From Alphaproteobacteria bacterium (lineage in GTDB: Bacteria; Pseudomonadota; Alphaproteobacteria; GCA-2746255): DNA of 64,000 bases. The position numbers were made by a program, and so were the translations under genes. The stretch covers positions 1,888,001-1,952,000 of the forward strand of contig OZ252220.1 in the NCBI GenBank assembly GCA_965249135.1. The letters are read 5' to 3'. Numbering within the stretch: the stretch's first letter is position 1; each line of letters begins with the position of its first letter. The notes beneath the pieces were generated by a model that was given only the letters and a program-made list of their open reading frames with translations, made no database searches and was not told the origin of the DNA. Below, piece after piece: positions 27,807-42,889 of this stretch.

Positions 27807-28034
27807 ATGTCTACTATGCTTGATGGCGTCATGGCGAAAGCATTCGACGACATCGATCGGGAAGATCCCTTCCACCTGTCGCTCAACTTACTCGAGGCGT
27901 ATCATCGCATGGGCTTGCTTCTCGTGCCGATCGAACCCTCTGAGGAAAAGGTCGAAGCCGGTGTTCTGGCCGGCGCACCGTCGGCGGAACTCGCCGAACG
28001 AATCTACAAGGCGATGACGCGCTCGACGGATTAG
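27807..28034 (+). CDS. Small hypothetical protein
   Basis: 75-aa ORF with RBS AAGGA, divergent from pyrD; no motif recognised. Confidence 0.5.
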   Translation: MSTMLDGVMAKAFDDIDREDPFHLSLNLLEAYHRMGLLLVPIEPSEEKVEAGVLAGAPSAELAERIYKAMTRSTD

Positions 28035-28582
28035 CGATTAGTGCTTGCACTAAAACGCCGGGCAAGTTCACTCAGGAAATTCGGCGCTGAATGGCTGTTC
28101 GAAGTCTTTTCCTGGCTTCGCTTGTACACGTAAATCCCAAGAACGCTTAAGCCCACGATCCAGATCGCGCTTAACTGCCCAAGCGCGCCAATGACGCCGC
28201 CGGCGCGTGCCGGTTCAAAGGCGATCACATAGGCCACGGCTAGCATCTGGGCGAACCAGGTAAAGGCCAGGATGTAGCCGAAGGTCGGGCGCATCCGCCG
28301 CACATAGCCATCCTCCGAGCGCGCCTCCGCACGGATCGTTTGATTGATCTCGCTTAGGATCTTTGCTTCCCGTTCCGCATCGATCGCCACCATCCGTTCG
28401 ACGTGGCGGTTCGCTTCGCTTACGACTTCCGGGGAGATCGTTCCTTTTTCGATCGCCGAGCCGACCCCGTCGAGGGCATCGGCCGCCGATTTCGCGATCG
28501 GATGATCGAGCCTGCCAAGGGCGCTGCCTACCGTTTTTACGAGCAGCGGCAGGCCGATCTGGGCGAGAAGGGCCGCCAGCAT
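28031..28582 (-). CDS. Holin, 3-TM type (GTA_holin_3TM-like)
   Basis: EARSEDGYVRRMRPTFGY, two TM helices, then LGIYVYKRSQEK. Confidence 0.75.
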   Translation of the reverse strand: MLAALLAQIGLPLLVKTVGSALGRLDHPIAKSAADALDGVGSAIEKGTISPEVVSEANRHVERMVAIDAEREAKILSEINQTIRAEARSEDGYVRRMRPTFGYILAFTWFAQMLAVAYVIAFEPARAGGVIGALGQLSAIWIVGLSVLGIYVYKRSQEKTSNSHSAPNFLSELARRFSASTNR

Positions 28583-29015
28583 CTAGGCATCCTCCCGGTA
28601 GTAGAGGTGGCTCCCGAAGGTGACGGCGGGCGTTCGCCCCTGGGCCCAGACGGGAAACGCATCCTCGGAATGAAAGCGCGTCGCACCTTGGGTCGGGTCC
28701 CTTAACACGCCGGCAAGCGCCCGCCTGGCGATACGGGAGGCAAGCCTGAAAAGGGCACGCGTCCTTGTGGGCGTCGGGCGGGGTCCGGGCCTTCCCGATC
28801 CGTTCCTCGCAAAGGATTTCAAAGTTTTTTCCGTCCGTTCGGTTCGTCATTTCCAGTTGGGCTCGGTTCAGGATCGCGGCGGCGATCGCCTCCATGTTGC
28901 GGACGTTTCCCCGCTTTCCTTGACACCCCTTCGCGCTTTCCGCGTAGATGGCTTCGGCGAGCAAACGGGTAAGCCGTTGGCGCTCGCTTTCCGGAAATTT
29001 GCGTCTTCTTTTCAA
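28583..29015 (-). pseudogene. SleB/Hydrolase_2-like cell wall hydrolase (putative endolysin), +1 frameshift near 28735
   Basis: LAEAIYAES...MEAIAAAILNR in one frame and RIARRALAGVLRDPTQGATRFH...PVWA...GSHLYY in the next. Removing one G from GGG at 28735-28737 joins them as FQACLRIARR. Confidence 0.75.
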
Positions 29016-29332
29016 CGGTGCCTCTGAATTTGATTGTCGAGCTTGTCTTCGATCCGCTGCAGATGGCGCGTGAGCCGAATCTCCACGTCCTTGAGGCACG
29101 CCATCGAGGCATAGGATTTCGCGACTTCCAGCTTGAAGGCGGAGAGACTCTCCCGGTGCTCGTCGATTCCTTCCTCGAGCAAGTGATGGAACCGAAAAAG
29201 AGATGCCTGCCCTTCGCTCCGGGCGCGCCAGATAAGCCAGAAGAGTCCGGCAAACGTTGGGATCTCGACACCGGTAATCCACCAGATGAGATTGATATCC
29301 CAGTGAAACCCCATCCCAGTCTCCCTGTTCAA
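29012..29332 (-). CDS. Phage-cluster membrane protein (one TM plus coiled coil)
   Basis: WWITGVEIPTFAGLFWLIW TM segment, then FKLEVAKSYAS...RIEDKLD; coupled to both neighbours. Confidence 0.7.
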   Translation of the reverse strand: MNRETGMGFHWDINLIWWITGVEIPTFAGLFWLIWRARSEGQASLFRFHHLLEEGIDEHRESLSAFKLEVAKSYASMACLKDVEIRLTRHLQRIEDKLDNQIQRHR

Positions 29333-30801
29333 ATTTCGAAATTCGTCTTTGCAACGACACTTTGTGCGCCTCGCCAGTCCCGCCGGGTTGGTGCCGGCGT
29401 CACGGGAAGGCGGACCGGTTCGGCGAGTAGGCAGCCACTCACCGCATCCAGGCCGTCATCCTGAACGTCGATGCCGGGCTGCCATTCCCGCATTTCCGTG
29501 ATGAACGGGCTTGCCCAGACGCTGCGGTGGGCATGCAAGGCCCCCGCCGCGAGTACGGCGTCGAACACATCCAGGATTCGAAAATCCTTGGCATGGGTCG
29601 AGACCGCCTCAAGAACGCTCGTGCCGAGGTCGGCCATCGCAAGCTCCCGGCGCAGCAATCCGGGCAGAAAGCGTCCAAGCCCATTCGTTTCCAGCGATAG
29701 GCTTGGGAGATAAAGCCCCTTAAGAAATTCAACGACCTGACGGCAGAGTTGTGTTGCCTCATCGAGCTCGGAATCCGGATCCCAGGCAAAGTAGTGAACG
29801 CGATGCAGCCAATACCCGCCATCCTCATCCGTATAGACGGCAGCGACGACGTTCCTGTCCCCGCGCGCCGGCGCGCCGAAGGCTGGATCCCACCAGCAAC
29901 TCGCGGAAACGAGGCGCTTTCCTTCGAGGGTGAGGCTCGCCACCTTGTTTGATTCGCGATAATCGAGCTCGCCTTCATAAAGACGCAATCGGTCGGGATC
30001 GAGACGGCTCTCCATCGCGTTTACTTCCTCGAGCATCATTTGACTCGCGAACTTGTTCGGTCCGCTTCGTCGCTCGATCGCCGCGATTTTCTGCTTCGAG
30101 AAACGCTTCGGCCAACGGCTTCTTCCATTTTCGTCGAATAGAGGAAGCTCCAGACGCTTGAAGCCGTCGAGGTAGGGTTGCGTCTCCTCGGCTTCCGGCC
30201 GCGCTTGTTCGGCATAGATCGTGTAATAGGTGTGCGGCGTACCGACGTATAGTTGCAAACCACCGGGTACGAGTACGTAGTCGATCTCGGCGAGTTTCGT
30301 ACGCAGATTGGCCCGCTTGGGAACGGAGTCGGAAGTGTTCGGTACTTCAACATCGTCACAAAGAACGATGTCTGCCCGGCTTCCGGTCACGTTCGCATTG
30401 ATTCCGCGCCCCAACATGGAAGGATCACGAAGTCGCATACGACGATTAACGGTAAATTGCGAGGCTGCCCACTGATCTGCGCGTTTTGGTTTTAGGCCCC
30501 GCGTAAGGGGATGGCGCTCGATGATCTGTTTGACGTTGCGGACCATCTTGTTTGCCAGCTCCTGCTCGGCAGCAAGGACCAGAATCCGCAAGTTTGAATT
30601 TTTGGCGAGCAGCCAGGCGGAAAAAAGTCCGGCGATTGTCGACTTCCCACTGTCTCGAAAGGCAAGCAGTAGAAGCTCGCGATCCCCATTTTTCCAGCGT
30701 GCGTCCAGCCAGTTTGCAATCTCCAGATGCAGCTTTGGGGTGGATAAGGATTGAAGGCGATTCCAGAGCCAGACGAATTCCGGAAATGTCGGTCCGCTCA
30801 T
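29329..30801 (-). CDS. terL: Terminase large subunit (T7 gp19-like)
   Basis: Walker A AFRDSGKST, VTGSRADIVLCDDVE, GTPH, nuclease WDPA...ETNG...DDGLDA. Confidence 0.92.
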   Translation of the reverse strand: MSGPTFPEFVWLWNRLQSLSTPKLHLEIANWLDARWKNGDRELLLLAFRDSGKSTIAGLFSAWLLAKNSNLRILVLAAEQELANKMVRNVKQIIERHPLTRGLKPKRADQWAASQFTVNRRMRLRDPSMLGRGINANVTGSRADIVLCDDVEVPNTSDSVPKRANLRTKLAEIDYVLVPGGLQLYVGTPHTYYTIYAEQARPEAEETQPYLDGFKRLELPLFDENGRSRWPKRFSKQKIAAIERRSGPNKFASQMMLEEVNAMESRLDPDRLRLYEGELDYRESNKVASLTLEGKRLVSASCWWDPAFGAPARGDRNVVAAVYTDEDGGYWLHRVHYFAWDPDSELDEATQLCRQVVEFLKGLYLPSLSLETNGLGRFLPGLLRRELAMADLGTSVLEAVSTHAKDFRILDVFDAVLAAGALHAHRSVWASPFITEMREWQPGIDVQDDGLDAVSGCLLAEPVRLPVTPAPTRRDWRGAQSVVAKTNFEI

Positions 30802-31097
30802 TCCTCCTCCACCATCTTGACGAGCGCGGCTCGTGCTTCGGCGATCAGTTGCGACATGTCTTCGGTGGCTGCCTCGTCGTCGTCCCCGTTCACCTCCGCC
30901 CAGCGGGCCATGCGGATCAACAGCTCCATATGGGCGAGCGCCGCTTTACAGGCAACGTGGTGGGCCGCAAAGCCTTTTGGGTCCTTCGGCTGCTGTTCGG
31001 TGGCGAAATGACGATAGCCACTCAGCGCCTTATCCAGCAGGCTGGGAAGCGCGGCGTGAACCCGCTTCCGCAGGGCCGCCATGTCTTTCACCATCAC
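30798..31097 (-). CDS. Hypothetical protein, positional candidate for terminase small subunit
   Basis: 99-aa helical-looking ORF coupled directly upstream of terL. Function inferred from position only. Confidence 0.55.
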   Translation of the reverse strand: MMVKDMAALRKRVHAALPSLLDKALSGYRHFATEQQPKDPKGFAAHHVACKAALAHMELLIRMARWAEVNGDDDEAATEDMSQLIAEARAALVKMVEEE

Positions 31098-32230
31098 ACT
31101 GGCGCCGTGGCGAACAACAGGATCGCGATGTCACGGGTGCTGGCGAGCCGGTTCTCGATATAAAGCTTGCCGTCCGTATGGGCTGAATAGGTGATCGTGT
31201 TGGGATTTCCCGTCGTCCCGGTCAAGGCGCCGGTCGTCGATTCGACGCCGGTGATGTTCGCAATCAGGTCACAAAAGGGGAAGGTCGCCACCCGCCAAGA
31301 GAAGAGCGCACCTGCCGAATCCCCCAACTGGTTGAGTCCAAAGGCAAGCGTGATTCCACCATTGGCAGGTGGCGTAAAGCTGGTTGCCGTATCCGTCGCG
31401 AGGGAAAATGTCTGGAAGTCCACCTTGGTCCCCGCCAGCGTCTTCAGGATTTCCCAGCCAAGGTCGGTACCGGCGGCATTGACTTTCAGCACCTGATCCG
31501 CCGTTCCAAGCGCCAGTCGCTGGGCGGCCGAAGCGCCTCGGGCAACAAGATCTCCTTGCGTCGTAAGAAGATCGAGTTCGTTACCGGAAACCGTGATTTC
31601 GTTCGCATCCGAAGAAAGACCGACACCACTGCCGGCGACAAGGGATTTGAAGCGAAGGGTAACCCCGGATTTTTGCGCGAAAACTCCCTCGCCGCCGCCC
31701 AGGTTGAGACCGTCGTTCGACTCACCGCCAAGATCGGGATCGGCTTGCGTCGCGGCCCGGTCATAAACCGCCGGTTCACCGAACTGTCCGAAGCTAAGCA
31801 GCTTGTCTGCCCGGGTTGCGACCGGTGGCAAAGACATATCCGTGTCGATGTCGTGTACATCTTGGTGAAGCGCGTCCTGGGCAACGCTTTCCACCGTTTG
31901 TACAAACATCGTAAGTTTATCGAGCTCCTCGTTGATGATAGAGGCACGGAAATCTCCCCCTTCCTGAAAATCCGTGCTGCGCGCGACCGGCATGTCCCGG
32001 CGAATGGTGATTCGTATGCCGTTTACGGGCGGCGAGTCGAAAACGACGTTGCCGCCGCTGCTGTTACCGACGCCGGTGATCGTGTAGGAGGTTGGTGTTC
32101 CACCATCGTCAAAAAACACTTTGAGATCGGCGGCATCGAAGATCGGAAAGGGATAAACGAAACTGGTTTGCACGCCATCGGCTGTGTATTGCATGCGCGG
32201 CCGTACGTCACCAACGGTGAGTTCACTCAT
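31094..32230 (-). CDS. Tail fibre protein (T7 gp17-like N-terminal anchor)
   Basis: YTADGVQTSFVYPFPIF...RSTDFQEGGDFRASIINEELDKL anchor, followed by Gly/Thr-rich fibre segments. Confidence 0.8.
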   Translation of the reverse strand: MSELTVGDVRPRMQYTADGVQTSFVYPFPIFDAADLKVFFDDGGTPTSYTITGVGNSSGGNVVFDSPPVNGIRITIRRDMPVARSTDFQEGGDFRASIINEELDKLTMFVQTVESVAQDALHQDVHDIDTDMSLPPVATRADKLLSFGQFGEPAVYDRAATQADPDLGGESNDGLNLGGGEGVFAQKSGVTLRFKSLVAGSGVGLSSDANEITVSGNELDLLTTQGDLVARGASAAQRLALGTADQVLKVNAAGTDLGWEILKTLAGTKVDFQTFSLATDTATSFTPPANGGITLAFGLNQLGDSAGALFSWRVATFPFCDLIANITGVESTTGALTGTTGNPNTITYSAHTDGKLYIENRLASTRDIAILLFATAPV

Positions 32231-32278
32231 GCCTTAATCCTCTTCCGGTTGTTATCGGTAAATCTTCGAGAATGAAAA

Positions 32279-32752
32279 CTAGCGTCCAAACAACGAAGTT
32301 CCGGCGCTTCGCAGAAGTGGGACGCCCCTTTGCAGCGTTTGTAGCCGACCGCGCGCACGCGCATCTGCCGCCTGTAAGAGGTTGATCCGTCCCCGTGACA
32401 GACGGGCGTTTTCGATATCGCGAATCTGCGCGTTGCGAAGAAAGGCATCTTCCGCACCTGCTTGCTTGCTTTCTGCGACTAGCCCGCCCAGAACGGCAGC
32501 AGCGGAACCTTCTGCAGGGTTTAATCCTCGGCCGGCAAAGCGGGCACGCCGGGCTGCAAGTTCCTGACTAAGAAAACCCTTGCGACGTTGTTCCTCAATC
32601 TCGCCAAGACGTCGAAGTTCGCCAATTCGTGTTCGCGCGGCTGCATCGTTTGCCGAAAGTTGGGCTAGATTCTGTCTTGCCTGGGCGCGCGCCGTCTGCT
32701 GGGCAGAAAACACGTTAAGGCCAAGCGTTGCGATCGTAGCTAAAGCAGCCAT
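32279..32752 (-). CDS. Putative internal virion / ejection protein (gp14-like)
   Basis: 157 aa, Ala/Gln/Arg-rich, hydrophobic N-terminus, ARFAGRGL...GSA pattern; coupled (TGATG) to the tail tube B stop. Confidence 0.6.
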   Translation of the reverse strand: MAALATIATLGLNVFSAQQTARAQARQNLAQLSANDAAARTRIGELRRLGEIEEQRRKGFLSQELAARRARFAGRGLNPAEGSAAAVLGGLVAESKQAGAEDAFLRNAQIRDIENARLSRGRINLLQAADARARGRLQTLQRGVPLLRSAGTSLFGR

Positions 32753-34657
32753 CAGTCGTTCACCATGATTTCGGTTGTGACGGACAAAAGGGTGAAGGGA
32801 TAGGGGGTATCCTGCTCGATGCGCCAAAGCGCTTCCGTTCCCTCCGATTTCCAGCCAAGTGCACGCACGCGCTTGTTTCCGGTGAAGGCGGCGGGTGCGG
32901 AGTCCAAAACGCCGGATGGCCCGAGCGTCTTGAACGGAAGCTCCTTCGGCCCCTTGCCGATATCCACCCTGAGCGCCTTCGTCTCATGGAGCCGGAAAGC
33001 CGCTTCAATCAACCGAAGCGGAGCAACCTGGCGACTTCCAAACCGACCATCAAGGACCAGCGGCAGAGGCTCGATGTCATGGGTATAGGGAAGGCCGATC
33101 TCGACGGTTGTCGCGGGTTCATTCAGGGTGACACTGCCGCTTGCTACCACCGCGTCGTCCCGAAGAATGCCGTCGGCGATAACCTTGACCGTTTTACCTT
33201 CGATGTGGTCGAGGCCGCTCCATTGGGTCGCGGGTGTACCGCTCTGACCAGTAAGGGCCGAATCGGTGTGGACCGATTCGTCGAAAAGCTCGATCAAGAA
33301 TTGGCCGTTTCGATCCACGAGAACGTAAACGTCACTGCCAACGACGGCGACGGAAAGAAAATTCCCATCCGTTTCTTGCAGCGTCCATGCGGTGACCTGT
33401 TCGGCGCGGAAAGCAGTCACCGTCGCAAGCGTCCCATCCCCCATGACGATGTGAACGAGCCGCCTGGATTGATCAAAATCTTGATCAACCGGCGCGTTCA
33501 TCAGGTGTTGGGATGGCAAGGCCAGATCGTTCGCCTGATAGGCTTGCTCGATGTCCGTAAACAGGAATTCCCGAATCTCTTTCTCGTTCCGAGCGAGAAA
33601 AAGCGTTGCCCCGCCGACGTTGATCGGCGGCAGGGTGCGATCGATGGGAGACCCGATCCGGGTTTGGCGGCGAAGCTGGACCGTCGTCGGCGTCAAGGGA
33701 TCGCCCGTCACCATCCATTCGGCGCCAGAGGTGAAGACTTGCAGGTGTCGGCCTGAAAACACCGAGCGGATCGCATTCACTTGATCGGAAAGAATTGCGA
33801 ACTCGATGGCCTCGTCATCGAGGCCGGTGCCAACATTGAAGTTGAAAATATCGGCCGATTTCGACATCCAAAGCCGGTTCGGTAAATCCCGCGATCCACC
33901 AATGATCAGTCGATCCTGATGGAAGGCGACGGAAACCGGATGGCCTCGCACCGAAGAAAAGGCCTGCTCGTCCCAATCCTTTGTGGAGTTTGTCGAATTC
34001 AAGGTCTCCTGGACGGTAGCATTTGCCAGGGTCGGCGAGACGATGGAGCTGATCAACACTTCCTTTCCCCCAAGCCGGAAGTTTGTCCCCCCGTGACCGG
34101 TCACGAAGATGTCTCCCGTTGCGGTAAGCGTGATGTTACCGGTTGTCGCGCTTGGCTGGAGCTGAATACTGTCGTGGGCAAATTTGAAGTAGGGTTGGCG
34201 CGTGCCCTCCGAATCTGACACATAGCTCCAAGTATCGATTGTCCACGCCGTATCCGACGTTCGTGTAATCTGGCGGGGTGTGTTCGGGGTGGACGACAAG
34301 GAGTGTGTCCGCGCTTTGCGTCCAGTTAATCTGAGGAAGCCTCGCCACGGTCCAAGGCGTCGACGTAATTTCCGCAACCCATTGCTCATCCCGGTAGATA
34401 TCAATCCGCGAATCGGTAAAGACGAGCAGATAAACCTGCTCCGTGTTGAACTCGAAGGAAATGAACCTGCCGGTATCTTGGGCCGTATCGATGAAACGCA
34501 GGCCCGCGCGCCGTTGGATGCCCCCTGTCGGAAAGATGAACGTGTTCCGAAGTTTTGCCGCTCCGTTTTCGTAGGCGCTAAGGTCGCCTCGGCCAAGGAG
34601 AAGCGGCGACAATTCACCGGAGGTGAAATTTGTCTGCGTTTTGTGGACGCGGGGCAT
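32752..34657 (-). pseudogene. Tail tubular protein B / nozzle (T7 gp12-like), frameshifted near 34275-34282
   Basis: N-terminal part (34136..34657 ORF) QTNFTSGELSP...GGIQRRAG...QSADTLLVVHP continues in another frame as PRQITRT...FHQDRL...GLDHIEGKTV...GLPY. Confidence 0.8.
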
Positions 34658-35226
34658 CAGCTTCGCACACCGACAAGCGTGAAATCGTCGAGGCCTACGG
34701 GGGTTTCCTGTTGGGAATCAACGAGCCGTGCGTTCCGGAATTCCGCATTCGCAAGGCGGAAAAGGGTTTCGGCGCGACTCGTGCTCTCCGTGATGGGGAT
34801 CGTGAATTCCGCGGCAAGCCGTGTGATCAGTGCTTGGTCGAAGAAGGGTGGAAAGGTCGATTCACCGGGACGGAAAATATAGGTCAACACAACCGCCGAA
34901 GCGTTCGCGTGCAACCTTTGTTCGGCGATTCGGTAAACCAGGCCACGTCCGCGCCCTCCATCGCCTAAGGAAAGCGCGCGCAGGAAATCCGATGGCAACT
35001 GGAAGGCATACACAAAGTCCGCGACGGGCTCCGCTACCAACTGGGGAAGTTCGGCCTGGCCGGTCGCAAATATCCACGGATGCGCGGAAAGGAGCGCGTC
35101 GCGCACAGAAGGGTATAGGTTTGCTGCAACGTCCGCTTCCGCCGTTCCTTCATTGAAGGCGGCAATCGGGTTCGCACCGATCTTGATCAGTGCACGCGAG
35201 CAAAGCGCGATGCTGCTCAACGCCAT
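34657..35226 (-). CDS. Tail tubular protein A / adaptor (T7 gp11-like)
   Basis: LCSRALIKIGA..I.......EA......Y...RDALL..HPW.FA...YAFQLPSDFLR...F...L..RLA. Confidence 0.85.
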   Translation of the reverse strand: MALSSIALCSRALIKIGANPIAAFNEGTAEADVAANLYPSVRDALLSAHPWIFATGQAELPQLVAEPVADFVYAFQLPSDFLRALSLGDGGRGRGLVYRIAEQRLHANASAVVLTYIFRPGESTFPPFFDQALITRLAAEFTIPITESTSRAETLFRLANAEFRNARLVDSQQETPVGLDDFTLVGVRS

Positions 35227-35242
35227 GAAAATCTCCGTTTTG

Positions 35243-35276
35243 AAAAAGAGCAGCCCCGCGGCCGAAACCGCGGGGC
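35243..35276 (-). terminator. Intrinsic terminator between head and tail genes
   Basis: Minus strand GCCCCGCGG-tttcgg-CCGCGGGGC followed by tgctcTTTTT. Confidence 0.7.
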
Positions 35277-35298
35277 CAGAGCATGAAGGACGTTGGAC

Positions 35299-35568
35299 TT
35301 AGTCCGTGTCCGTACCGCCGACGGCGGTGATGTCGTCGACGTCGACAATCGTCCCCGTATTGCTTGATACGAAGAAGATTCCAGCTGCCATCGTGCCGCC
35401 GGTAGCCACGTTTGCGAGGATCATGTCGCCAACGCGAATGACATCGGCAGCGTCGTTAAAGTAGCCAGCTGTATCGACCGCCGTTGCCGCATCCGGCGTA
35501 GTGTAGTGCCAGAGTGTGAAGCCATTGGCATAACCAATGACACTTAGATCTTGTGGTTTAAACGCCAT
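35299..35568 (-). CDS. Small virion protein after capsid (possible decoration protein)
   Basis: MAFKPQDLSVIGYANGFTLWHY.T.D....V...GYFN......VGD.I; directly follows the capsid gene. Confidence 0.7.
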   Translation of the reverse strand: MAFKPQDLSVIGYANGFTLWHYTTPDAATAVDTAGYFNDAADVIRVGDMILANVATGGTMAAGIFFVSSNTGTIVDVDDITAVGGTDTD

Positions 35569-35570
35569 GA

Positions 35571-36389
35571 TTAACTCTCCAAGCAACGCATGACGACGAG
35601 GCCGGTGGTGTCAACCAGACACGCACCTTGCGACATTGAACTGTTGACGAAGTGAGCGGCGCGATCGCCATGCCAAGTAACGTCGGTGCTGACGTCCGCA
35701 CCACTGGCATGCCCAACGGCCGTCTTGTGGTACCAGAAGCAGAACCGAACGCTCGTAGTGAGCGTCAGTCCGGAATGCGGCATCCACAAGGTCCCAAGCC
35801 AGAACTTGGCTTGAGTGCCGCGCCAGGGAAGCTCCTCACTGCCCACGAAGTCCGCATTTGCGAATTCGGGGATTTCAAGCAAATCGCTCCACTGTTTCCA
35901 GCCAATGATGGCGTGGCGTTGCCCGTCGTCGGGAACGTCTGCATCGCCAAGCATCTCGAAGGCCGTCAGTACCTTGGCCTTCGTCAGGCCGTCCGTATTG
36001 GCGCCTGCGAAGTTCGTCGACGTATCGAGTTGCGTGATGATGAGTTCATCCGCCTTGCGACCCAGTGCAAAGGCACCGGCATTCGCAATCACGTGACGTT
36101 CATCGATGTTGGTCTTCAGCTCATCCAGCTTGTCGACCCAGTCACCGGCGTAGTAATCCGCCAACGTACATTCGACCGGCGTGTGGTCGATGTTCATCAC
36201 GGGTACTTGGCCGTGACGCGCTTTCGTTGACGCACTTCCCTTGCCGACTTTCTGGAACACGGTGGACGATCCACGAACATTGTTTTTCGTGCGGACGGTA
36301 TTGCGAAGCTTGCTACCCATACGCTGGTAAGCCTCGCGCACCTCCCGCTCGAACTGCTTAATGAACGTTTGGTCGATCGTTGTGGCCAA
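35571..36389 (-). CDS. Major capsid protein
   Basis: TTG start with GAGGA RBS; IDQTFIKQFEREV..AYQRMGSKLRNTVR, VDKLDELK, ALGRKADELII; lies after the scaffold gene. Confidence 0.88.
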   Translation of the reverse strand: MATTIDQTFIKQFEREVREAYQRMGSKLRNTVRTKNNVRGSSTVFQKVGKGSASTKARHGQVPVMNIDHTPVECTLADYYAGDWVDKLDELKTNIDERHVIANAGAFALGRKADELIITQLDTSTNFAGANTDGLTKAKVLTAFEMLGDADVPDDGQRHAIIGWKQWSDLLEIPEFANADFVGSEELPWRGTQAKFWLGTLWMPHSGLTLTTSVRFCFWYHKTAVGHASGADVSTDVTWHGDRAAHFVNSSMSQGACLVDTTGLVVMRCLES

Positions 36390-36526
36390 TAGTAGTCCTC
36401 TCGTTTCGGAATGGACGAAGTTACGACTTGCGTAAAATCGCCCGGTTCCCGCAGTGCGGCCGGGGGCTTACGCGGATGCCTTCGGGGCCCCGTGCGGGGT
36501 TCTCCTTTGGGCGGAAAAATTGAAAA

Positions 36527-37309
36527 TCAGGCTTCGGCAGATTCCGGATAGAGCTTCTGGAATCCTTCCGATACCCGGTTGACGAAATCTGGGTCACGGT
36601 CCCGCCAATAGCGGGGATCCTTGATCATTTCTCGAAGCTGGCTCTCGTCGTTGGTCGCGGCACCTGTGCCATTTGACTGTAGGATCGCAGGCTCGCCTTC
36701 CGCCATCATCCGATGCATAACGAAGATCCCTTCGGCGGTTGTTGAAAGCGCGCCCAGGACGGCTTCCGGAAGGTGTGCCTTTCCCCATGCAAAGAGTTGA
36801 CGCGAGATTTCACGCCATTTCTCTTCACCGCCGAAATGGCGCTCGAGGCGTTCCGTCTCGCGTTCTGCTTCGAATTCGGCCCCGGCATTTTCCAGAATCG
36901 GCAGCACCTTTTCCACGGCAAGGTCGTAGACAAGTTGTGCCTGCGCAGACGTGAAGCCGGCTTGAAAGAGCTGTTCATTGACTTCCGGATCCGCGGCTAT
37001 GAGCTCGCTCTTCATTTCCAACTTGTATTCGTCCGGGGAGGTCGGTACACTAAGCGCCTTTCGGAAACTATGAATTTTCTCTTCCGTCGCGCTTTCGCCA
37101 GGCAGGGGGACCATCGTGCCAAGCTTACGTTCAAGTTCTTGATAGGATTTTAGAAGCATGCCGATACGCACTTCCCCAGTATCGGCGTTTCGAAACTTCT
37201 CGGGGATCGCTTCCGTCGTCTCCGTCGGTGTCTCATCGATTGGTTTGATTGTTTCGGGGCCAGGCGCCACCGTCTCCTCCGGCTCCGTCGTCAAAAGATT
37301 CGCGTCCAT
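36527..37309 (-). CDS. Capsid assembly scaffolding protein
   Basis: Acidic; PEKF...LLKSYQELERKLG, C-terminal LREMIKDPRYWRDRDP; lies between portal and capsid. Confidence 0.8.
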   Translation of the reverse strand: MDANLLTTEPEETVAPGPETIKPIDETPTETTEAIPEKFRNADTGEVRIGMLLKSYQELERKLGTMVPLPGESATEEKIHSFRKALSVPTSPDEYKLEMKSELIAADPEVNEQLFQAGFTSAQAQLVYDLAVEKVLPILENAGAEFEAERETERLERHFGGEEKWREISRQLFAWGKAHLPEAVLGALSTTAEGIFVMHRMMAEGEPAILQSNGTGAATNDESQLREMIKDPRYWRDRDPDFVNRVSEGFQKLYPESAEA

Positions 37310-37632
37310 AGCGATTTCCTCTTCCTAACCTTCGGTGTGGAGTCGAGCGCCGGTTCCGGCTCGATCCGGCCACCCCCCCGTTCGATCATGGCAGCGAGAT
37401 AGCCGACAAGCTGGCGCTGTCCCTCGAGATGGCGAAGGCCGCATCCGATGCGTTCGGCCCAAGATGGCGGCCAAGGGTCAACGTCGTCAGATGCCGGAAG
37501 ACCGGTTTGGCCATCCGGCGATCGAAACGTGCGGGCGAAGGCCTCGGCCGTCTCAAGCAGGACATCCTTGCCGGTCTCGCTCGGGAGGCTGGCTTCATCG
37601 AACCAGTTCCAGCCGGCATCATCCACGGCCAT
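37291..37632 (-). CDS. Small phage head-module protein (Bbp19-like) with two compensating indels
   Basis: FARTFRSPDGQ | VFRHLTTLTLGRHLGPNASDA (alternative frame) | LRHLEGQRQLV; frame switches near 37503 and 37438. Confidence 0.6.
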   Translation of the reverse strand: MAVDDAGWNWFDEASLPSETGKDVLLETAEAFARTFRSPDGQTGLPASDDVDPWPPSWAERIGCGLRHLEGQRQLVGYLAAMIERGGGRIEPEPALDSTPKVRKRKSLWTRIF

Positions 37633-39223
37633 CCTCCTCGGCGTTGGCGGTGTCTTCCGCAGCTTGTGCCGACTCGTTCCCGCCTAGGGCGGCGGCAAGG
37701 ACGGGGGCGGCCTCCGCGACAAGGGCCTCCTCGACGGCTTCTGCTACTTCGGCAAGGGCGATGGCCGGCGCTTCCCGGATCAACTGGTTGGGCACGCCGA
37801 GTTTCCGTCCCATCCACCGGACGGCGGCAGGCAAATCGATGGCGGCCATCCCCTCAGACCCAAAGGATGCTGCCGCATTCAGCCAGGTTAAGGTGAGTTG
37901 CACGTCCTTTTGAATCTGGCTTTGGGCGAGAGGCGAGCGGTATTGCAAGTCGACAAGGCGGCCATCGATAAAGATTTCCGGGATCTCGCCGCGCCGGCGA
38001 AGGATCTGTAACCCGCGGCTCACCAAAGGCGTCAACAATTCCGACTGCAGCCGGCCATAGGTTGCCCCAAGAATGCGTGTCATCTCGGCGGCACGTTCCA
38101 GCACTTCCGTCGCCGTCATGCGGGGGCCGTCAACCTGCCCCAACTGGTCGACGAGCAGCGCCTTTCGGATGCGACTCCGCAGGTCATCGAGGACGATCTG
38201 GGAGACGTCGAAACGCCCGGGCGCTTCGAGTGGCGTAAGCCCTGACGAACCGACGGCCTTCGGGATGATGGTTCCAGGCACGAGCTTGATGTTTGCCGGG
38301 TTAAGCACGCCGTCGTCATCCGCCTGCCAGATGCCGGTCACGGCGATCGTCGCGTTTTTGAGAACGAGCTCAACGACTTTATTCGCCGTCTTAATGTCGG
38401 GTAGCGCCTTCATTACCGGCGAACGACCGTAGATTTCACCCGGCGCCTTCAGCCAGCGGAAATTAAGGAAGGGCGACGAATCGAATTCACCGGTCGCTAA
38501 AACCCATGGTTCCGCCACCTCCCCTTTCTCGCTTTCAAGAAGCGCGTAATAGGCGTACCGGACCCCATCGGGAATGACCGCCTCGATAACCGTGAACTTC
38601 TTTGGGTTGTAGGCCTCGCCCTCCGGCTTTACCCATTCCGGCAAGGGCGCCTTCGGGAAACGCGTTTGGATGGCATCCGCATCGAGCGCGTTTCTGCGAA
38701 ACGTCGTATCGAGCCTGCCGGTGGGGCCTTCGTTGAGGACGGCTTGTGAAAGCGGGATCGCGGTGAACCGAAAGGCGCTCGCCGCCCCTGGCTCCGCTTC
38801 CTCGAAAAGTAGGCACGCCGTTCCCCCGGTAACGAGATCGAGGAAACCCTGATGCATCTCGATGGCGAAGTTCGACCGGTCGAGATGCGATTGCAGCGTT
38901 TTTGCCGCCTGGTCGAGCAGATCGGTAATTGCGGCTTCTTCCTCTTCGAATATCTCTGTTCCGGCGGCGAGACCGAACCAGCGCGCCCAAGGTGGCGTAA
39001 GCTGAGCCAGCAGGCTTGCCGCCAGTTGATCCACCGCATCCGGTGCCGTGCCGCCGAACAGCTTATCCGTCTTTTTCTCGCCGGGCCGGGGGGTGCGCGT
39101 GAATTCGTCCCGTTGCGGCAAGGCAAAATCGTAAGCTTCCTGCCAGTGGCTCTCCCAGAAACTTCGCCGGACGAGTGCCTGACGGTAGCGTGTGTAAACT
39201 GCCTCGGCGGTTAAGCTTGGCAT
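37619..39223 (-). CDS. Portal / head-to-tail connector (T7 gp8-like)
   Basis: WESHWQEAYDFALP, TAPDAVDQLAASL..LTPP, RW...GEIYGRSP...ALPDIKT.N, MTATEV.ER..E....LG..YGRLQSE. Confidence 0.92.
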   Translation of the reverse strand: MPSLTAEAVYTRYRQALVRRSFWESHWQEAYDFALPQRDEFTRTPRPGEKKTDKLFGGTAPDAVDQLAASLLAQLTPPWARWFGLAAGTEIFEEEEAAITDLLDQAAKTLQSHLDRSNFAIEMHQGFLDLVTGGTACLLFEEAEPGAASAFRFTAIPLSQAVLNEGPTGRLDTTFRRNALDADAIQTRFPKAPLPEWVKPEGEAYNPKKFTVIEAVIPDGVRYAYYALLESEKGEVAEPWVLATGEFDSSPFLNFRWLKAPGEIYGRSPVMKALPDIKTANKVVELVLKNATIAVTGIWQADDDGVLNPANIKLVPGTIIPKAVGSSGLTPLEAPGRFDVSQIVLDDLRSRIRKALLVDQLGQVDGPRMTATEVLERAAEMTRILGATYGRLQSELLTPLVSRGLQILRRRGEIPEIFIDGRLVDLQYRSPLAQSQIQKDVQLTLTWLNAAASFGSEGMAAIDLPAAVRWMGRKLGVPNQLIREAPAIALAEVAEAVEEALVAEAAPVLAAALGGNESAQAAEDTANAEEDGRG

Positions 39224-39225
39224 CG

Positions 39226-39444
39226 CTATTCCCCCAAGAGCTGCTTGCGACGGGGAAACGCATCCTGCGGCAGCAGCACGCCACGGAAGGAGGTGGCGAT
39301 CGTACCCGCCCGTCCGCGCCGGCGAAGGCCTTGGCTGCTCGTTGCCTTTGCTGCTTGCGAGGCCTCTTTGGGCGGGCGCGCGGGTTGGGGTAAGGCCCGC
39401 GGCCACACGGGTAGCGGTCTTGGGGAGCCAAACAGACTAGACAT
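39226..39444 (-). CDS. Small Pro/Arg-rich virion protein preceding portal
   Basis: MSSLFGSP.P...RGRAGTIATS.RG...KQLLGE pattern; RBS GGGGG; first gene after the late-type promoter. Confidence 0.65.
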   Translation of the reverse strand: MSSLFGSPRPLPVWPRALPQPARPPKEASQAAKATSSQGLRRRGRAGTIATSFRGVLLPQDAFPRRKQLLGE

Positions 39445-39455
39445 TACTTGACCCC

Positions 39456-39489
39456 CTTTCCCGAAAGCCGATCTTTCCCGAAAGCCGAT
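39456..39489. repeat. Perfect 17-bp tandem duplication
   Basis: CTTTCCCGAAAGCCGAT x2 (39456-39472, 39473-39489). Confidence 0.95.
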
Positions 39490-39555
39490 GTGAAAAAGTG
39501 AGCACCTCCCGAGGGGAACCGGGAGGCGCCGAATAGATGGGTCGTGATGGTAGAA

Positions 39556-39587
39556 AGGAATATAGTCCTATATCCCCTCGCCGTCAA
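39556..39587 (-). promoter_or_regulatory. Sigma70-type promoter of the structural operon with overlapping palindromic operator
   Basis: Minus strand TTGACG-N17-TATATT; AGGA-ATATAG-TCCT (39556-39569) covers the -10. Confidence 0.75.
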
Positions 39588-40048
39588 GAGGAAAGGAAGC
39601 CAAGGACGAGACTCCGTTTACCGAGTCGATCAAGGTGCCTGTAAAGTTGCCAGGGCGTAAAGACATTTGCCGCCCTTATGCCAAGGACACGTTTCACCGC
39701 CTCGACGCAGGTGAAGGGCCGAAGCGGAAGCGATGTCCAGGAAGATGGGAAGCAGTGTGTCGGCGGTGCCGGTAAGATTTCGGTAGTGACGACGCAGAGC
39801 CCATGTTGCCGGTACCAGTCGGCAAGGTCGAAATCGAGCGGCAGATCGAGTGCGACGATCTCCGTTCGATGAACAAGCGGGTCATAAACAAGCCAGCGCG
39901 AACCTTGAAGGATCACCAAGAAACAGTGGCGGTAGCCGCGTTTCAAAATACGCAGCCAAGGAAGGTCCGTCTGATTCGAAAAGACGACAAGGACAGGAAG
40001 CGCCTGCGCCTCCCATTCGTCTCGCAAGTTGCAAGCCTTTCGTCTCAT
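39584..40048 (-). CDS. Hypothetical protein, possibly a permuted papain-like (NlpC/P60-type) Cys hydrolase
   Basis: GYRHCF...FTCVEAVKRVLG...TPWQLY (His before Cys, TP..L end); ATGA-coupled to the upstream gene. Confidence 0.6.
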   Translation of the reverse strand: MRRKACNLRDEWEAQALPVLVVFSNQTDLPWLRILKRGYRHCFLVILQGSRWLVYDPLVHRTEIVALDLPLDFDLADWYRQHGLCVVTTEILPAPPTHCFPSSWTSLPLRPFTCVEAVKRVLGIRAANVFTPWQLYRHLDRLGKRSLVLGFLSS

Positions 40049-40410
40049 TGCACGATCCCCTTGCCACGCAAAACACAGGCCAGCCGATGCAGCGCTTCCT
40101 CCCATAGAAGCGCGGCCGTCTCTTCCCGTTGGCGTTTTCCGTCGGGTGGCAGCAGTTTTTCGCCATATTCCGACAGCACCAGAAGGTGTTCGCGGCGTAA
40201 TTGCCGTTGCCGGTAAAGACGGTTGACAGCCGAAAGCACATCGTCGGGATCGCAAGGTCGCAACGCCTCGCCGCATCCGGCCGTGATCCGTGCGCCCGCT
40301 CGCCGGGCTTGAAAGCATTGAACGAACCAAAACCAAGCCTCCTCGGCCGTGGCAAACGGCACGCCTGCAAGGGGGAGGTAGGGTCTTGGGGCGTAGCGCT
40401 CGCGTCGCAT
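40045..40410 (-). CDS. Hypothetical protein divergent from the repressor (candidate activator)
   Basis: 121 aa, PFATAEEAWFWF...RPCDPDD...RLYRQRQL...LWEEAL.RL...LRGKGIV; function inferred from position. Confidence 0.65.
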   Translation of the reverse strand: MRRERYAPRPYLPLAGVPFATAEEAWFWFVQCFQARRAGARITAGCGEALRPCDPDDVLSAVNRLYRQRQLRREHLLVLSEYGEKLLPPDGKRQREETAALLWEEALHRLACVLRGKGIVQ

Positions 40411-40476
40411 TCTGCTTCGATCCTCGTGACCGGAAATTCAGGCCTAGGGGGGAGTAAAAACGGCCTCTAAGAAACA

Positions 40477-40554
40477 AGGAATTTATTCCTTTATCAAGAG
40501 ACATAGGATAATATTCCTGGTGTGATGGGGGGGCAAGTATAAGAAAATCTTCTT
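40477..40554. promoter_or_regulatory. Divergent control region with repeated palindromic operators
   Basis: AGGA-ATTTAT-TCCT (40477-40490), AGGA-TAATAT-TCCT (40505-40518), degenerate AAGA-AAATCT-TCTT (40541-40554); leftward promoter TTGCCC-N17-TATTAT (40536-40508). Confidence 0.75.
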
Positions 40555-41187
40555 ATGTTGCGTCATGCCGACATATGGACCGCCATCGATAACTTCGCCA
40601 GAGTTCACGGGCTTTCGCCTTCCGGGCTCGCGCGCCGCGCCGGCCTCGATCCGACGACGTTTAATAAAAGTAAGCGGATCACTCGAGAGGGGAAGCCGCG
40701 GTGGCCCAGCACCGAAAGCATTTCGAAAATTCTGGATGCAACCGATAGCACCTTTGGCGAGTTTGCCATTCATCTTGGGAACGAAGCCGCGCAAGGCTTA
40801 GTACAACGGGTTCCGGTGATTGGCTTCGCCCAGGCGGGCAATGAGGGCTATTTTGACGATGCCGGCTACCCAACTGGAAGTGGTTGGGATGAAACAGTAT
40901 TTCCATATATTGGCGATGCGCATGCTTATGCGCTTGAGGTTAGCGGCGATAGCATGCAACCGATCTATCGTGACGGGGACATCATCCTCGTCTCGCCGGC
41001 AAAAAACATTCGTCGAGGCGATAGGGTCGTCGTAAAAACGAAAGAAGGCGAGGTGCTGGCGAAGGAATTAAAACGTCAAAGCAGCAAGCGCATCGAACTT
41101 CTCTCCCTAAACCGCACCTATGGGGATCGGATCCTGCCCGTCGAGAATGTTGAATGGATGGCGCGCGTCGTTTGGGTCAGTCAGTAA
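40555..41187 (+). CDS. HTH + S24 peptidase (LexA/CI-like) transcriptional repressor
   Basis: SGLARRAGLDPTTFNKSKR...RWPSTESISKIL HTH; AQAG putative cleavage site; GDSM Ser and LAKEL Lys dyad. Confidence 0.9.
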   Translation: MLRHADIWTAIDNFARVHGLSPSGLARRAGLDPTTFNKSKRITREGKPRWPSTESISKILDATDSTFGEFAIHLGNEAAQGLVQRVPVIGFAQAGNEGYFDDAGYPTGSGWDETVFPYIGDAHAYALEVSGDSMQPIYRDGDIILVSPAKNIRRGDRVVVKTKEGEVLAKELKRQSSKRIELLSLNRTYGDRILPVENVEWMARVVWVSQ

Positions 41188-41296: not shown

Positions 41297-42889
41297 CTAG
41301 CCGGCTTTGTCTTCCTGAAAAAGTTCTCCGGCCAGCGCTTGGCGGATGAGCCGAACCGTCTCCATCCGACCGTAAAGGGCGATGAAGGATCCCATCCGCG
41401 GTCCCCGTGACTGGCCAAGGAGGATTTCATAGAGGGCCTGGAACCAGGTCTTCAGATCCGGGAAGGGGTGGCGTTTTCCGACTTCGTAGACTTCCGTCTG
41501 GATTCCTTCCGCGTCCAGGTTGGCGGGAAGCAATTCCAGCACCTTCGCCAAGTCTTCAAGGGCAGCTTGCTCCATTTCATTTGGCGCCCGATAGTGCTTC
41601 GCCGGCTTGATGAAGTCCTGGTAATAGTTCACGGCGTGTTGCGCGAGCGCATCCAGGATAGGTTCCATCTTAGGGCTTGCCTTCGGTGCATATCGGGAGA
41701 GATAACCCCAAATCACGGAACTCTCTTCCGCATGGCAGGCGCTCGCGAGATTCAGCAGAATCGAGTAGGTGAGATGAAGCGCCTCCTTTGGCGGGCTGCC
41801 CTCGTGGATATGCCAGACCGGATTCGCCAAACGTTCGGCGGGTTCTTGCTCTTCATATTTGCTGAGGAAATTTAGATAATCGTCGACATTCCTGGGGATG
41901 ACGTCGAAATAAAGCCGCTTTGCCTTTTTCGGCGATTGATACATGAAAAGCTTAAGGCTTTCCGGCGGTGCGTAGCGAAGCCACGCCTCGACGCTCAGAC
42001 CATTTCCCCTTGACTTCGATATCTTCTCGCCGTTTTCGTCGAGGAAAAGTTCATAGGTAAAGCCCTCGGGAGGTGTGCCGCCAAGAATGCGACAAATCCG
42101 ATTGCCGAGTCGCACGGAATCGGTCAAGTCCTTCCCGGACATTTCATAATCGACGTCGAGGGCTGTCCATCGCATGGCCCAATCGACTCGCCACTGTAAT
42201 TTACAATGGCCCGCCGTAACGGGAAGTTCTGTCTTTGTACCGTCCTCATCTTCAAAGGTGATCGTGCCGGCAGTCACGTCCCATGCAATCACGGGCGTCT
42301 GAAGGACGCGTCCCGTTTTCGGCGAAATGGGCAGAAACGGGCTATAGGTTGCCCGGCGTTCTTCGCCAAGGATCGGCAATACCACCTCTAGAATTTCGTC
42401 ATAGTGCTCAAGCACCTTCCGGAGAACCGGATCGAATCGGCCACTTTTATAGCATTCCGTGGCACTCTGAAATTCGTAGTCGAAACCGAAGGAATCGAGA
42501 AAGGCATGTAGCCGAGCGTTGTTGTGGTGACCAAAGCTTTCATGCGTTTCAAAGGGATCCGGAATCGATGTCAGCGGCTTTCCGAGATGCTCCGCTAGCA
42601 TTGCCTGGTTGGGGACGTTATCGGGCACTTTACGAAGCCCGTCCATGTCATCGGAAAAGGCAAAGAGACGGGTGGGAACGTCCGCCAGTGTCGAAAAGGC
42701 ATGCCGGACAAGCGTCGTGCGGACCACTTCAGCAAAGGTTCCGATGTGGGGAAGGCCCGACGGGCCATAGCCGGTCTCGAAAAGAACATAGCCCTTCTCG
42801 GGACATTTGCCGTCGATGCGCTCGAGTACGCGCCGCGCTTCCTGAAACGGCCAAGCTTTACACGCCGCCGCAGCCTCGCGATCGGACAT
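41297..42889 (-). CDS. lysS: Lysine--tRNA ligase, class I
   Basis: ETGYGPSGLPHIGTF, KLQWRVDW, KISKSRGN, GPRMGSF. Confidence 0.96.
   Translation of the reverse strand: MSDREAAAACKAWPFQEARRVLERIDGKCPEKGYVLFETGYGPSGLPHIGTFAEVVRTTLVRHAFSTLADVPTRLFAFSDDMDGLRKVPDNVPNQAMLAEHLGKPLTSIPDPFETHESFGHHNNARLHAFLDSFGFDYEFQSATECYKSGRFDPVLRKVLEHYDEILEVVLPILGEERRATYSPFLPISPKTGRVLQTPVIAWDVTAGTITFEDEDGTKTELPVTAGHCKLQWRVDWAMRWTALDVDYEMSGKDLTDSVRLGNRICRILGGTPPEGFTYELFLDENGEKISKSRGNGLSVEAWLRYAPPESLKLFMYQSPKKAKRLYFDVIPRNVDDYLNFLSKYEEQEPAERLANPVWHIHEGSPPKEALHLTYSILLNLASACHAEESSVIWGYLSRYAPKASPKMEPILDALAQHAVNYYQDFIKPAKHYRAPNEMEQAALEDLAKVLELLPANLDAEGIQTEVYEVGKRHPFPDLKTWFQALYEILLGQSRGPRMGSFIALYGRMETVRLIRQALAGELFQEDKAG

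Follow-up and report, generated by a model that had tools for sequence, protein, structure and literature searches.

A putative RogA-type repressor and its operators at a podovirus-like particle cluster of an alphaproteobacterium

What controls the phage-derived particle genes that lie between pyrD and lysS in the genome of an alphaproteobacterium of the GCA-2746255 lineage? The stretch analysed here (64,000 nucleotides, positions 1,888,001 to 1,952,000 of contig OZ252220.1; hereafter the window) holds, next to one another, a cluster of T7-like structural genes, a two-gene operon termed geneA-geneB and the gene of a repressor with a helix-turn-helix (HTH) and an S24 domain, and copies of the palindrome AGGA-N6-TCCT lie over the promoter regions between them. 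A preliminary description of the window had taken these palindromes for operators of the adjacent repressor and the whole for a complete switch. Our results suggest a longer answer, which we consider likely as a whole: a repressor of the RogA kind would act on five promoter regions and be released by self-cleavage, with antitermination by the geneA product as a second lock.

Operator sites and the promoters beneath them

Four sites are central to the argument:

39556..39569, unstranded: operator O3, AGGAATATAGTCCT, over the structural -10; scores 22.3 bits with the matrix from the relatives
40477..40490, unstranded: operator O1, AGGAATTTATTCCT, matches GGAA-N4-TTCC perfectly; top score in the genome
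40505..40518, unstranded: operator O2, AGGATAATATTCCT, 28 bp from O1
40541..40554, unstranded: operator O4, degenerate and symmetric, AAGAAAATCTTCTT; extended palindrome ATAAGAA-N4-TTCTTAT; 15.9 bits

A pattern search of the 64-kb window agrees with the sequence in placing AGGA-N6-TCCT at three points only, O1, O2 and O3, at the positions first reported. The degenerate fourth copy is also where it had been placed, its last base directly preceding the repressor ATG at 40555. Shuffled windows contain a mean of 0.92 copies, and at least three in 10 of 100 shuffles. The whole genome (2,118,282 bp) has 19 copies, approximately 0.009 per kb, of which O1 to O3 are three, all within 963 bp, and two of the genome's three copies with an all-A/T spacer are at this locus. 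The significance of the palindrome in the window therefore lies in its clustering and not in its count. The weight-matrix consensus of 15 sites is AGGAATATATTCCT; the operator consensus, TAGGAA-N4-TTCCTA, contains GGAA-N4-TTCC, from which O2 and O3 deviate by one mismatch each. When the genome was scored with a matrix built from 12 sites of four relatives, none of them from the window genome, the window sites ranked first, third (tied with second) and fourth. Eight sites reached at least 18 bits in the genome, compared with 0 to 4 in five Markov-1 simulated genomes and one in the reversed genome.

A geneB homolog is present in four of the five other species of the genus (G001, G002, G004 and G005); none was found in the fifth, G003, the genome of which is 88% complete. 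Protein identity of these relatives to the window is 63-74% for geneB and 80-89% for the repressor. All four sites are in place in each of the four same-genus genomes with the locus, with an O1-O2 spacing of 28-29 bp in 5/5 genomes and O4 36-37 bp beyond. The O4 pattern, AAGAAAAT(C/G)TTCTT, is found in 5/5 genomes and in two further loci (L034 and L035). In the alignment, the stretch from the geneA start to O1 is unconserved and the approximately 100 bp from O1 to the repressor ATG are conserved. Conserved sites and promoter elements amid drifting DNA form the pattern expected of functional sites, and it is because the palindromes keep their positions in these relatives that we read them, as the preliminary description did, as putative operators.

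The promoter elements in question are as follows:

39559..39587, minus strand: structural promoter, TTGACG-17-TATATT, from a promoter scan
40508..40536, minus strand: promoter first proposed for geneA-geneB, TTGCCC-17-TATTAT, from the scan; -35 unconserved
40492..40497, minus strand: conserved TTGAYA, here TTGATA, the preferred -35 of geneA-geneB; O1 fills its spacer
40538..40543, plus strand: conserved TATAAG, invariant in 5/5 genomes, a possible -10 of the repressor gene

For the structural promoter the scan agrees with the original reading, and the element with its -10 in the operator is kept in 5/5 genomes: the -35, CTTGACG, is invariant, the -10 follows TA(T/G)A(T/A)T, and the spacer between them is unconserved. 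In distant copies of the cluster (L037, L038, L059 and L068) the operator overlaps the structural -35 (ATCC-TTGACA) and not the -10; its position appears to have shifted between lineages, yet always on a core promoter element.

The promoter of geneA-geneB is less straightforward. TTGCCC-N17-TATTAT is indeed found by the scan, in which both leftward -10 hexamers begin 3 bp inside an operator (plus-strand coordinates), and a TATNTT-like -10 in O2 persists in 4/5 genomes. If this promoter drove the operon, the switch could be a simple occlusion of the -10 at both promoters and nothing more, a reading which we consider unlikely. Its -35 is unconserved in the four relatives, which have TCCCGA, TTTTCC, TTAATC and TTTTCC at that position, whereas T(A/G)TCAA on the plus strand between O1 and O2, or CTTGAYA on the minus strand, is invariant in 5/5 genomes; the C before TTGAYA fits the CTTGAC consensus of alphaproteobacterial promoters. 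The resulting layout (O2, 7 nt, -35, 1-2 nt, O1) recurs in L034 and L040 (63% identical repressor), and L037 (65% identical repressor) retains its -35/O1 part. The conserved terminator in the structural leader, described below, also argues for a layer beyond occlusion. On this comparative evidence we lean towards the conserved TTGAYA between the operators as the -35 of the geneA-geneB promoter. The identical register once described for the two leftward promoters is doubtful for geneA-geneB because TTGCCC is unconserved and TTGAYA conserved between the operators; the register is more likely shared by the structural promoter and two unlinked promoters. On the other strand, TATAAG as a -10 would yield a near-leaderless repressor mRNA.

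The repressor, its family and its likely trigger

Two genes frame this part of the argument:

40555..41187, plus strand: repressor, HTH plus S24, 210 aa, RogA-family candidate; Ala94-Gly95, Ser133 and Lys170 retained
41297..42889, minus strand: lysS, class I lysyl-tRNA synthetase by Pfam, a conserved neighbour of the repressor gene

The repressor matches Peptidase_S24 (1.2e-25, residues 87-206), HTH_26 (residues 11-72) and phrog_4, and its HTH is of the Cro/CI type. Ser133 and Lys170 align with Ser119 and Lys156 of LexA, and a sequence search of the PDB returned LexA and UmuD only. We collected 51 family loci, with repressors 52-89% identical to this one, from species-representative genomes of Rhodospirillales-like bacteria, Hyphomicrobiales and Caulobacterales. 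The repressor homolog has lysS beside it in 23/51 loci, most of them without phage genes nearby, and geneA, geneB or a portal gene lies within 2.5 kb in only 8/51; for these reasons the gene is a conserved host gene and not part of the element.

The motif accompanies this gene. GGA-N6-TCC has a density of 1.94 per kb in the 200 bp upstream of the repressor genes versus 0.19 elsewhere in the loci; an exact copy occurs within that distance in 20/51 loci, and a matrix match of at least 12 bits, read by eye, lies upstream in 28/51. Six loci from Nitratireductor, Salaquimonas and Phyllobacteriaceae (L069-L074) have the motif and lysS, lack geneA, geneB and the portal gene nearby, and carry, 60-80 bp upstream of the repressor gene, one strong AGGAATAATTTCCT; many Hyphomicrobiales loci have the variant AGGTAATAATTCCT. 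Across orders the recognition region, GLDPT(T/S)FNKSKR...RWPSTES, hardly varies, which would fit a conserved operator. Because the motif travels with the gene even in the absence of phage genes, the adjacent HTH-S24 protein appears to be by far the best candidate binder of the palindrome. The earlier claim that this protein directly silences the upstream genes and the particle operon is thus retained as far as the probable binder and the operators on promoters are concerned; the switch that it described is incomplete.

Could another factor, such as the geneA product, a nucleoid protein or another HTH protein, bind the palindrome, leaving the S24 protein to recognise something else? The genome does encode two further S24 proteins. 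One is a CI-like HTH_3-S24 repressor of 237 aa (genome 1133524-1135138; L017 1524-3138) near a Phage_CP76 (CII-like) gene, and this pair probably forms a separate prophage switch with no relation to the operator; the other is presumably LexA. The LexA box of alphaproteobacteria is GTTC-N7-GTTC, which, with up to one mismatch, occurs 59 times in the window versus 64.7 expected and is absent from the control regions 39407-39583 and 40411-40554. The motif is also found with the repressor gene in loci that lack geneA and geneB, and it is the repeat published for RogA (PMC9632790). We regard a different binder as scarcely credible.

Gozzi et al. 2022 (PMC9632790) describe RogA of Caulobacter crescentus as an HTH protein with a LexA/CI-like S24 domain (213 aa), homologs of which are reported in 819 of 1,331 alphaproteobacterial genomes. 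RogA-bound promoters carry GGAA-N4-TTCC inverted repeats: the gafYZ core promoter has two in the region bound by purified RogA in vitro, and CCNA_02002 is named as a second target with the repeat. The suggestion in the preliminary description that the core of the palindrome is of the RogA type agrees with this account. The repressor is a candidate ortholog of RogA (CCNA_00080). The same account describes RogA as being without key cleavage residues.

To place this description we sampled 101 Caulobacteraceae genomes, the family of the Asticcacaulis locus L060, including an unpublished genome (G068) that gave a weak match only. A full-length repressor homolog is present in 32/101 (E of 1e-45 or better). 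The 29 translated homologs are 42-60% identical, and five (L105, L106, L115, L116 and L117) have lost the Ser and kept the DNA-binding region; four of these five also lack the Lys and three the Ala-Gly, in agreement with RogA as published. Paired GGAA-N4-TTCC, sought in the five genomes with catalytically dead homologs, turned up only in a GC-rich, coding-like stretch that two of them share, which is uninformative.

In the wider family, by contrast with these five, the Ser and the Lys are each kept in 49/51 loci and the Ala-Gly in 50/51, the exceptions being frameshifted or truncated reads. The repressor thus has the Ala-Gly site and Ser/Lys dyad characteristic of self-cleaving S24 repressors (LexA, lambda CI, PrtR and AlpR). 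Because both are intact, the likeliest trigger would be RecA-stimulated self-cleavage after DNA damage, which would free all promoters together. It could also be that the repressor is not cleaved, that growth phase or another signal releases it and that Ser and Lys persist only because folding or dimerisation needs them. Such a mode would resemble that of RogA, which in the published description controls a gene transfer agent (GTA) without cleavage residues (PMC9632790), and the five Ser-less Caulobacteraceae homologs suggest that cleavage is dispensable in some lineages. Conservation of all three features in 49-50 of 51 loci across several orders is hard to explain without selection for catalysis, and we consider release without cleavage improbable, if worth keeping in mind.

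The wider regulon, the leader terminator and geneA

Scanning of the genome with the genus-site weight matrix returned three further sites scoring just below those of the window, and the relatives-only matrix yielded an identical top group. A site at genome position 43743 lies on a minus-strand promoter, TTGACG-17-TACTAT, before a gene for a 180-aa M23 peptidase, and one at 2052693 lies on a promoter, TTGACA-18-TAAAAT, before a gene for a 390-aa protein with a LamG/ConA-like domain. In both, the -10 is inside the operator, in a register equal to that of the structural promoter or 1 bp off. One operator is found 50-100 bp upstream of the M23 gene in 4/4 relatives with the whole gene (the G004 copy, cut by a contig end, was left out) and of the LamG-like gene in 5/5 relatives, and it is the only site of at least 14 bits in each of these ortholog loci (2.1-4.1 kb). 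The two proteins could plausibly serve in lysis and as a fibre or spike. Tran and Le 2024 (PMC11150451) name scattered accessory genes with shared control as a hallmark of GTAs, and the M23 and LamG-like genes, with their shared conserved operator, appear to be of this sort.

Two other high-scoring sites were seen. The site at 922490, TAGGAATATTATCCTG, scores 23.5 bits; it is flanked by a HicA/HicB-like gene and, downstream, by a conserved gene seemingly broken into several open reading frames (ORFs) in this genome. That at 260081, CAGCAATATATTCCTT (21.7 bits), is half-matching and lies approximately 45 bp upstream of a gene whose product starts MARVTVEDC, which we take to be rpoZ.

Between the structural promoter and the particle genes lie three further features:

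39547..39552, minus strand: -10-like TAYCAT, about +1 to +6 of the predicted structural transcript
39491..39530, minus strand: intrinsic terminator of the leader, a 12-bp stem with 8 G-C pairs followed by CACTTTTTCA
39226..39444, minus strand: first ORF of the structural operon, 72 aa (MSSLFG...), start conserved in the alignment

The terminator occupies nucleotides 22-60 past the predicted structural start, before the first structural gene, and its stem and T-run are kept in 5/5 genomes; in the distant loci L007, L008 and L009 a hairpin with a T-run likewise lies 3' of the structural promoter. The idea that the switch was complete with operators and repressor does not survive this finding, since a conserved intrinsic terminator separates the structural promoter from its first gene and implies a layer of antitermination. 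A conserved promoter-proximal terminator after the promoter is a feature of Q- and AlpA-type control, and the theme of promoter-proximal antitermination, like that of Q at PR'-tR' or of AlpA, would fit by analogy. TAYCAT, whose plus-strand form GATG(G/A)TA is invariant in the alignment, is a possible sigma-dependent pause element; the promoter of the LamG-like gene has a similar CCTATCTACCCT, and the leader of this gene holds a terminator-like hairpin.

In the gap between the terminator and the first ORF, a 17-bp tandem duplication was seen at 39457-39490 (tttcccgaaagccgatc twice, 16/17 identical), which the alignment shows as a single copy or none in the four relatives.

The candidate for the antitermination factor is in the two-gene operon, below which the particle genes follow:

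40045..40410, minus strand: geneA, 121 aa, four helices; ATGA overlap with geneB
39584..40048, minus strand: geneB, 154 aa, predicted permuted papain/NlpC-P60-like hydrolase
28031..39406, minus strand: T7/BPP-1-like particle cluster with portal, scaffold, capsid, tail tube A/B, fibre-like, large terminase and holin genes, by Pfam and PHROGs

Neither geneA nor geneB has a Pfam (E up to 10), PHROG or NCBIfam match. The 42 homolog clusters of geneA are all hypothetical. Its model (predicted local distance difference test, pLDDT, 82) has weak VIA matches to Q21 (6jnx_P; Z 6.2, root-mean-square deviation (rmsd) 3.5, 88 residues aligned) and AlpA (7xyb_G; Z 5.6, rmsd 3.8, 85 aligned) and to many sigma region 4 domains at a Z of approximately 5, which makes geneA a candidate sigma-region-4/Q-like transcription factor and antiterminator. 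For geneB there are 582 homolog clusters, and the 120 listed are all unnamed or annotated as 'hypothetical protein'. His41 and Cys114, the latter at a helix N-terminus, are invariant in 40 aligned sequences, and the VIA scores of the model (pLDDT 84) for TseH (Z 7.3, rmsd 4.8, 120 aligned), YiiX (Z 5.9) and the Bacillus cysteine peptidase 3kw0 (Z 5.7) stand above the remaining list; a Foldseek search of the PDB gave no match at E ≤0.001 (E above 0.1). These model-based matches point to a permuted papain/NlpC-P60-like hydrolase.

The particle cluster ends before pyrD and has the same flanks and gene order across the genus, with 63-89% protein identity; in L008 and L009 the portal gene has small ORFs (MGG.F...) similar to the 72-aa ORF ahead of it. 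Pfam and PHROG annotation from pyrD to lysS revealed no gene for replication, integration or RNA polymerase, and the RcGTA-type families GTA_TIM and Phage_capsid (HK97) were not found in the genome, which is 98.75% complete. Head, tail, packaging and lysis genes at a fixed chromosomal site, without those for replication or integration, are a GTA-like combination.

The gene for tail tubular protein B (32752-34657, minus strand) is split into two overlapping frames, with the break near 34275-34285. One ORF matches positions 1-137 of PHROG 376 and the second matches positions 261-711, the N-terminal part lies within one open frame of approximately 645 aa in G002, G004 and G005, and two close single bases are missing in the window genome relative to G002. 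The break may be a genuine frameshift or may stem from the assembly.

One might view the locus as an ordinary decaying prophage, with the repressor as the phage's own CI and the operators as its immunity region, since the cluster is phage-derived and its tail tube B gene is frameshifted. This view is at odds with the pairing of the repressor gene with lysS in loci mostly free of phage genes, with the preservation of the cluster's site, order and protein sequences across the genus, with the gene content from pyrD to lysS and with the presence of the same operator on accessory genes elsewhere in the chromosome. We therefore think it very unlikely.

The explanation that we prefer can be set out in steps. 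The 14-16 bp palindrome would be the operator of the adjacent 210-aa repressor, a dimer of which would occlude core promoter elements at five places: the structural promoter, through an operator on its -10; the geneA-geneB promoter, where O1 and O2 would flank the -35 and O1 would sit within the -35/-10 spacer; the repressor's own gene, through O2 and the weaker O4 over its putative transcription and translation start; and the unlinked promoters of the M23 peptidase and LamG/ConA-like genes, each with an operator on the -10. Once these were freed, a second lock would remain: the structural transcript, and probably that of the LamG-like gene, would meet an intrinsic terminator within approximately 60 nt, and geneA may encode the factor that takes RNA polymerase through the leader terminator.

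Several points weigh against this explanation. The bare count of three AGGA-N6-TCCT copies in the window is not significant. The TTGAYA promoter has a poor putative -10 (TTTCTT at 40474..40469), and the TTGCCC promoter, or both, may act. The fold matches of geneA, with Z of at most 6.2, are in the range that the tool flags as common for helical proteins, and a Foldseek search of the PDB with its model gave no match at E ≤0.001. Control by the SOS response is an extrapolation by analogy with LexA and CI, and RogA is not known to respond by cleavage. Three strong sites had to be kept out of the regulon: 922490, which lacks a -35 in register and persists in 2/5 relatives; 260081 (at least 18 bits), which has one half-site only and may be due to chance; and 184176 (at least 18 bits), which may also be due to chance and, judged by the surrounding sequence, probably lies in a coding region. 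Finally, the tail tube B frameshift means that the regulated particle may be defective in this genome.

Significance and comparison with known systems

The system appears to be a RogA-type repressor and operator in a new setting, with direct control of several promoters of a podovirus-like cluster and of dispersed genes; the operator assignment is well supported by the comparative sequence evidence. So far a single organism and a single kind of GTA are known for RogA and its GGAA-N4-TTCC repeat; here an operator of that type and a repressor of similar build would govern a different class of tamed phage, with T7-like head, short tail, terminase and holin, and the repressor gene stays next to lysS in several orders of Alphaproteobacteria. 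In the literature searched we found no account of a T7-like element controlled in the RogA manner. New here are the operator on two unlinked promoters, the conserved leader terminator and the weak likeness of geneA to Q and AlpA. The regulon is readable from sequence and has a testable trigger, and an operator scan could find further particle genes. If particles are made, GTA-like elements under control of the RogA type would have arisen a second time, independently. More tentatively, we can imagine that a T7-like GTA was domesticated independently and has one master lock, a still self-cleaving member of the RogA family placed directly on structural, accessory and regulator promoters, with a Q-like second lock; we hold this to be possible rather than probable. 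If that were true, RogA-type control of phage-derived particles would be older and wider than the RcGTA lineage, and its origin would lie in a DNA-damage switch, with the coupling to cleavage lost later in Caulobacter.

The closest resemblance is to RogA and gafYZ. Both systems have an HTH and S24-like protein of approximately 210 aa encoded by a conserved host gene, two inverted repeats over the core promoter of a two-gene operon above a phage-derived cluster, dispersed accessory genes and, here as a prediction, antitermination in the particle cluster; the proposed placement of O1 in the spacer, with O2 abutting the -35, resembles the way in which two RogA repeats cover the core promoter of gafYZ. 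There are also differences. The operator here is also directly on the promoters of structural and accessory genes, control extends to T7/podovirus-like and not RcGTA/HK97-like genes, the repressor gene adjoins its targets, and geneA and geneB, unlike gafYZ with its DnaA-domain-IV-like GafY, are without a Pfam match, DnaA-C and GafZ-type domains included (E up to 10). The self-cleavage residues are intact, which is a difference from the published RogA protein and not necessarily from its family.

Other phage-related switches share parts of this design. In Pseudomonas aeruginosa, PrtR/PrtN (pyocins) and AlpR/AlpA (self-lysis) consist of a self-cleaving S24 repressor over a small activator or antiterminator and respond to DNA damage. 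The likeness lies in an S24 repressor set over a small regulator of phage-derived or lysis genes; PrtR and AlpR act on the regulator's promoter only, whereas the repressor here appears to lock the target promoters too. The tandem operators in a divergent region and the predicted autoregulation recall lambdoid CI at OR, and a late promoter followed at once by a terminator, a -10-like initial element and a small factor whose fold may be Q-like recall Q at PR'-tR'; unlike lambdoid control, this system has a repressor that is a host gene, lacks a lysogeny or replication module and has operators on the late promoter. With LexA the repressor shares the S24 domain and its Ala-Gly, Ser and Lys, and it differs in its HTH and in its predicted site, which is a palindrome, AGGAA-N4-TTCCT, and not the direct repeat GTTC-N7-GTTC.

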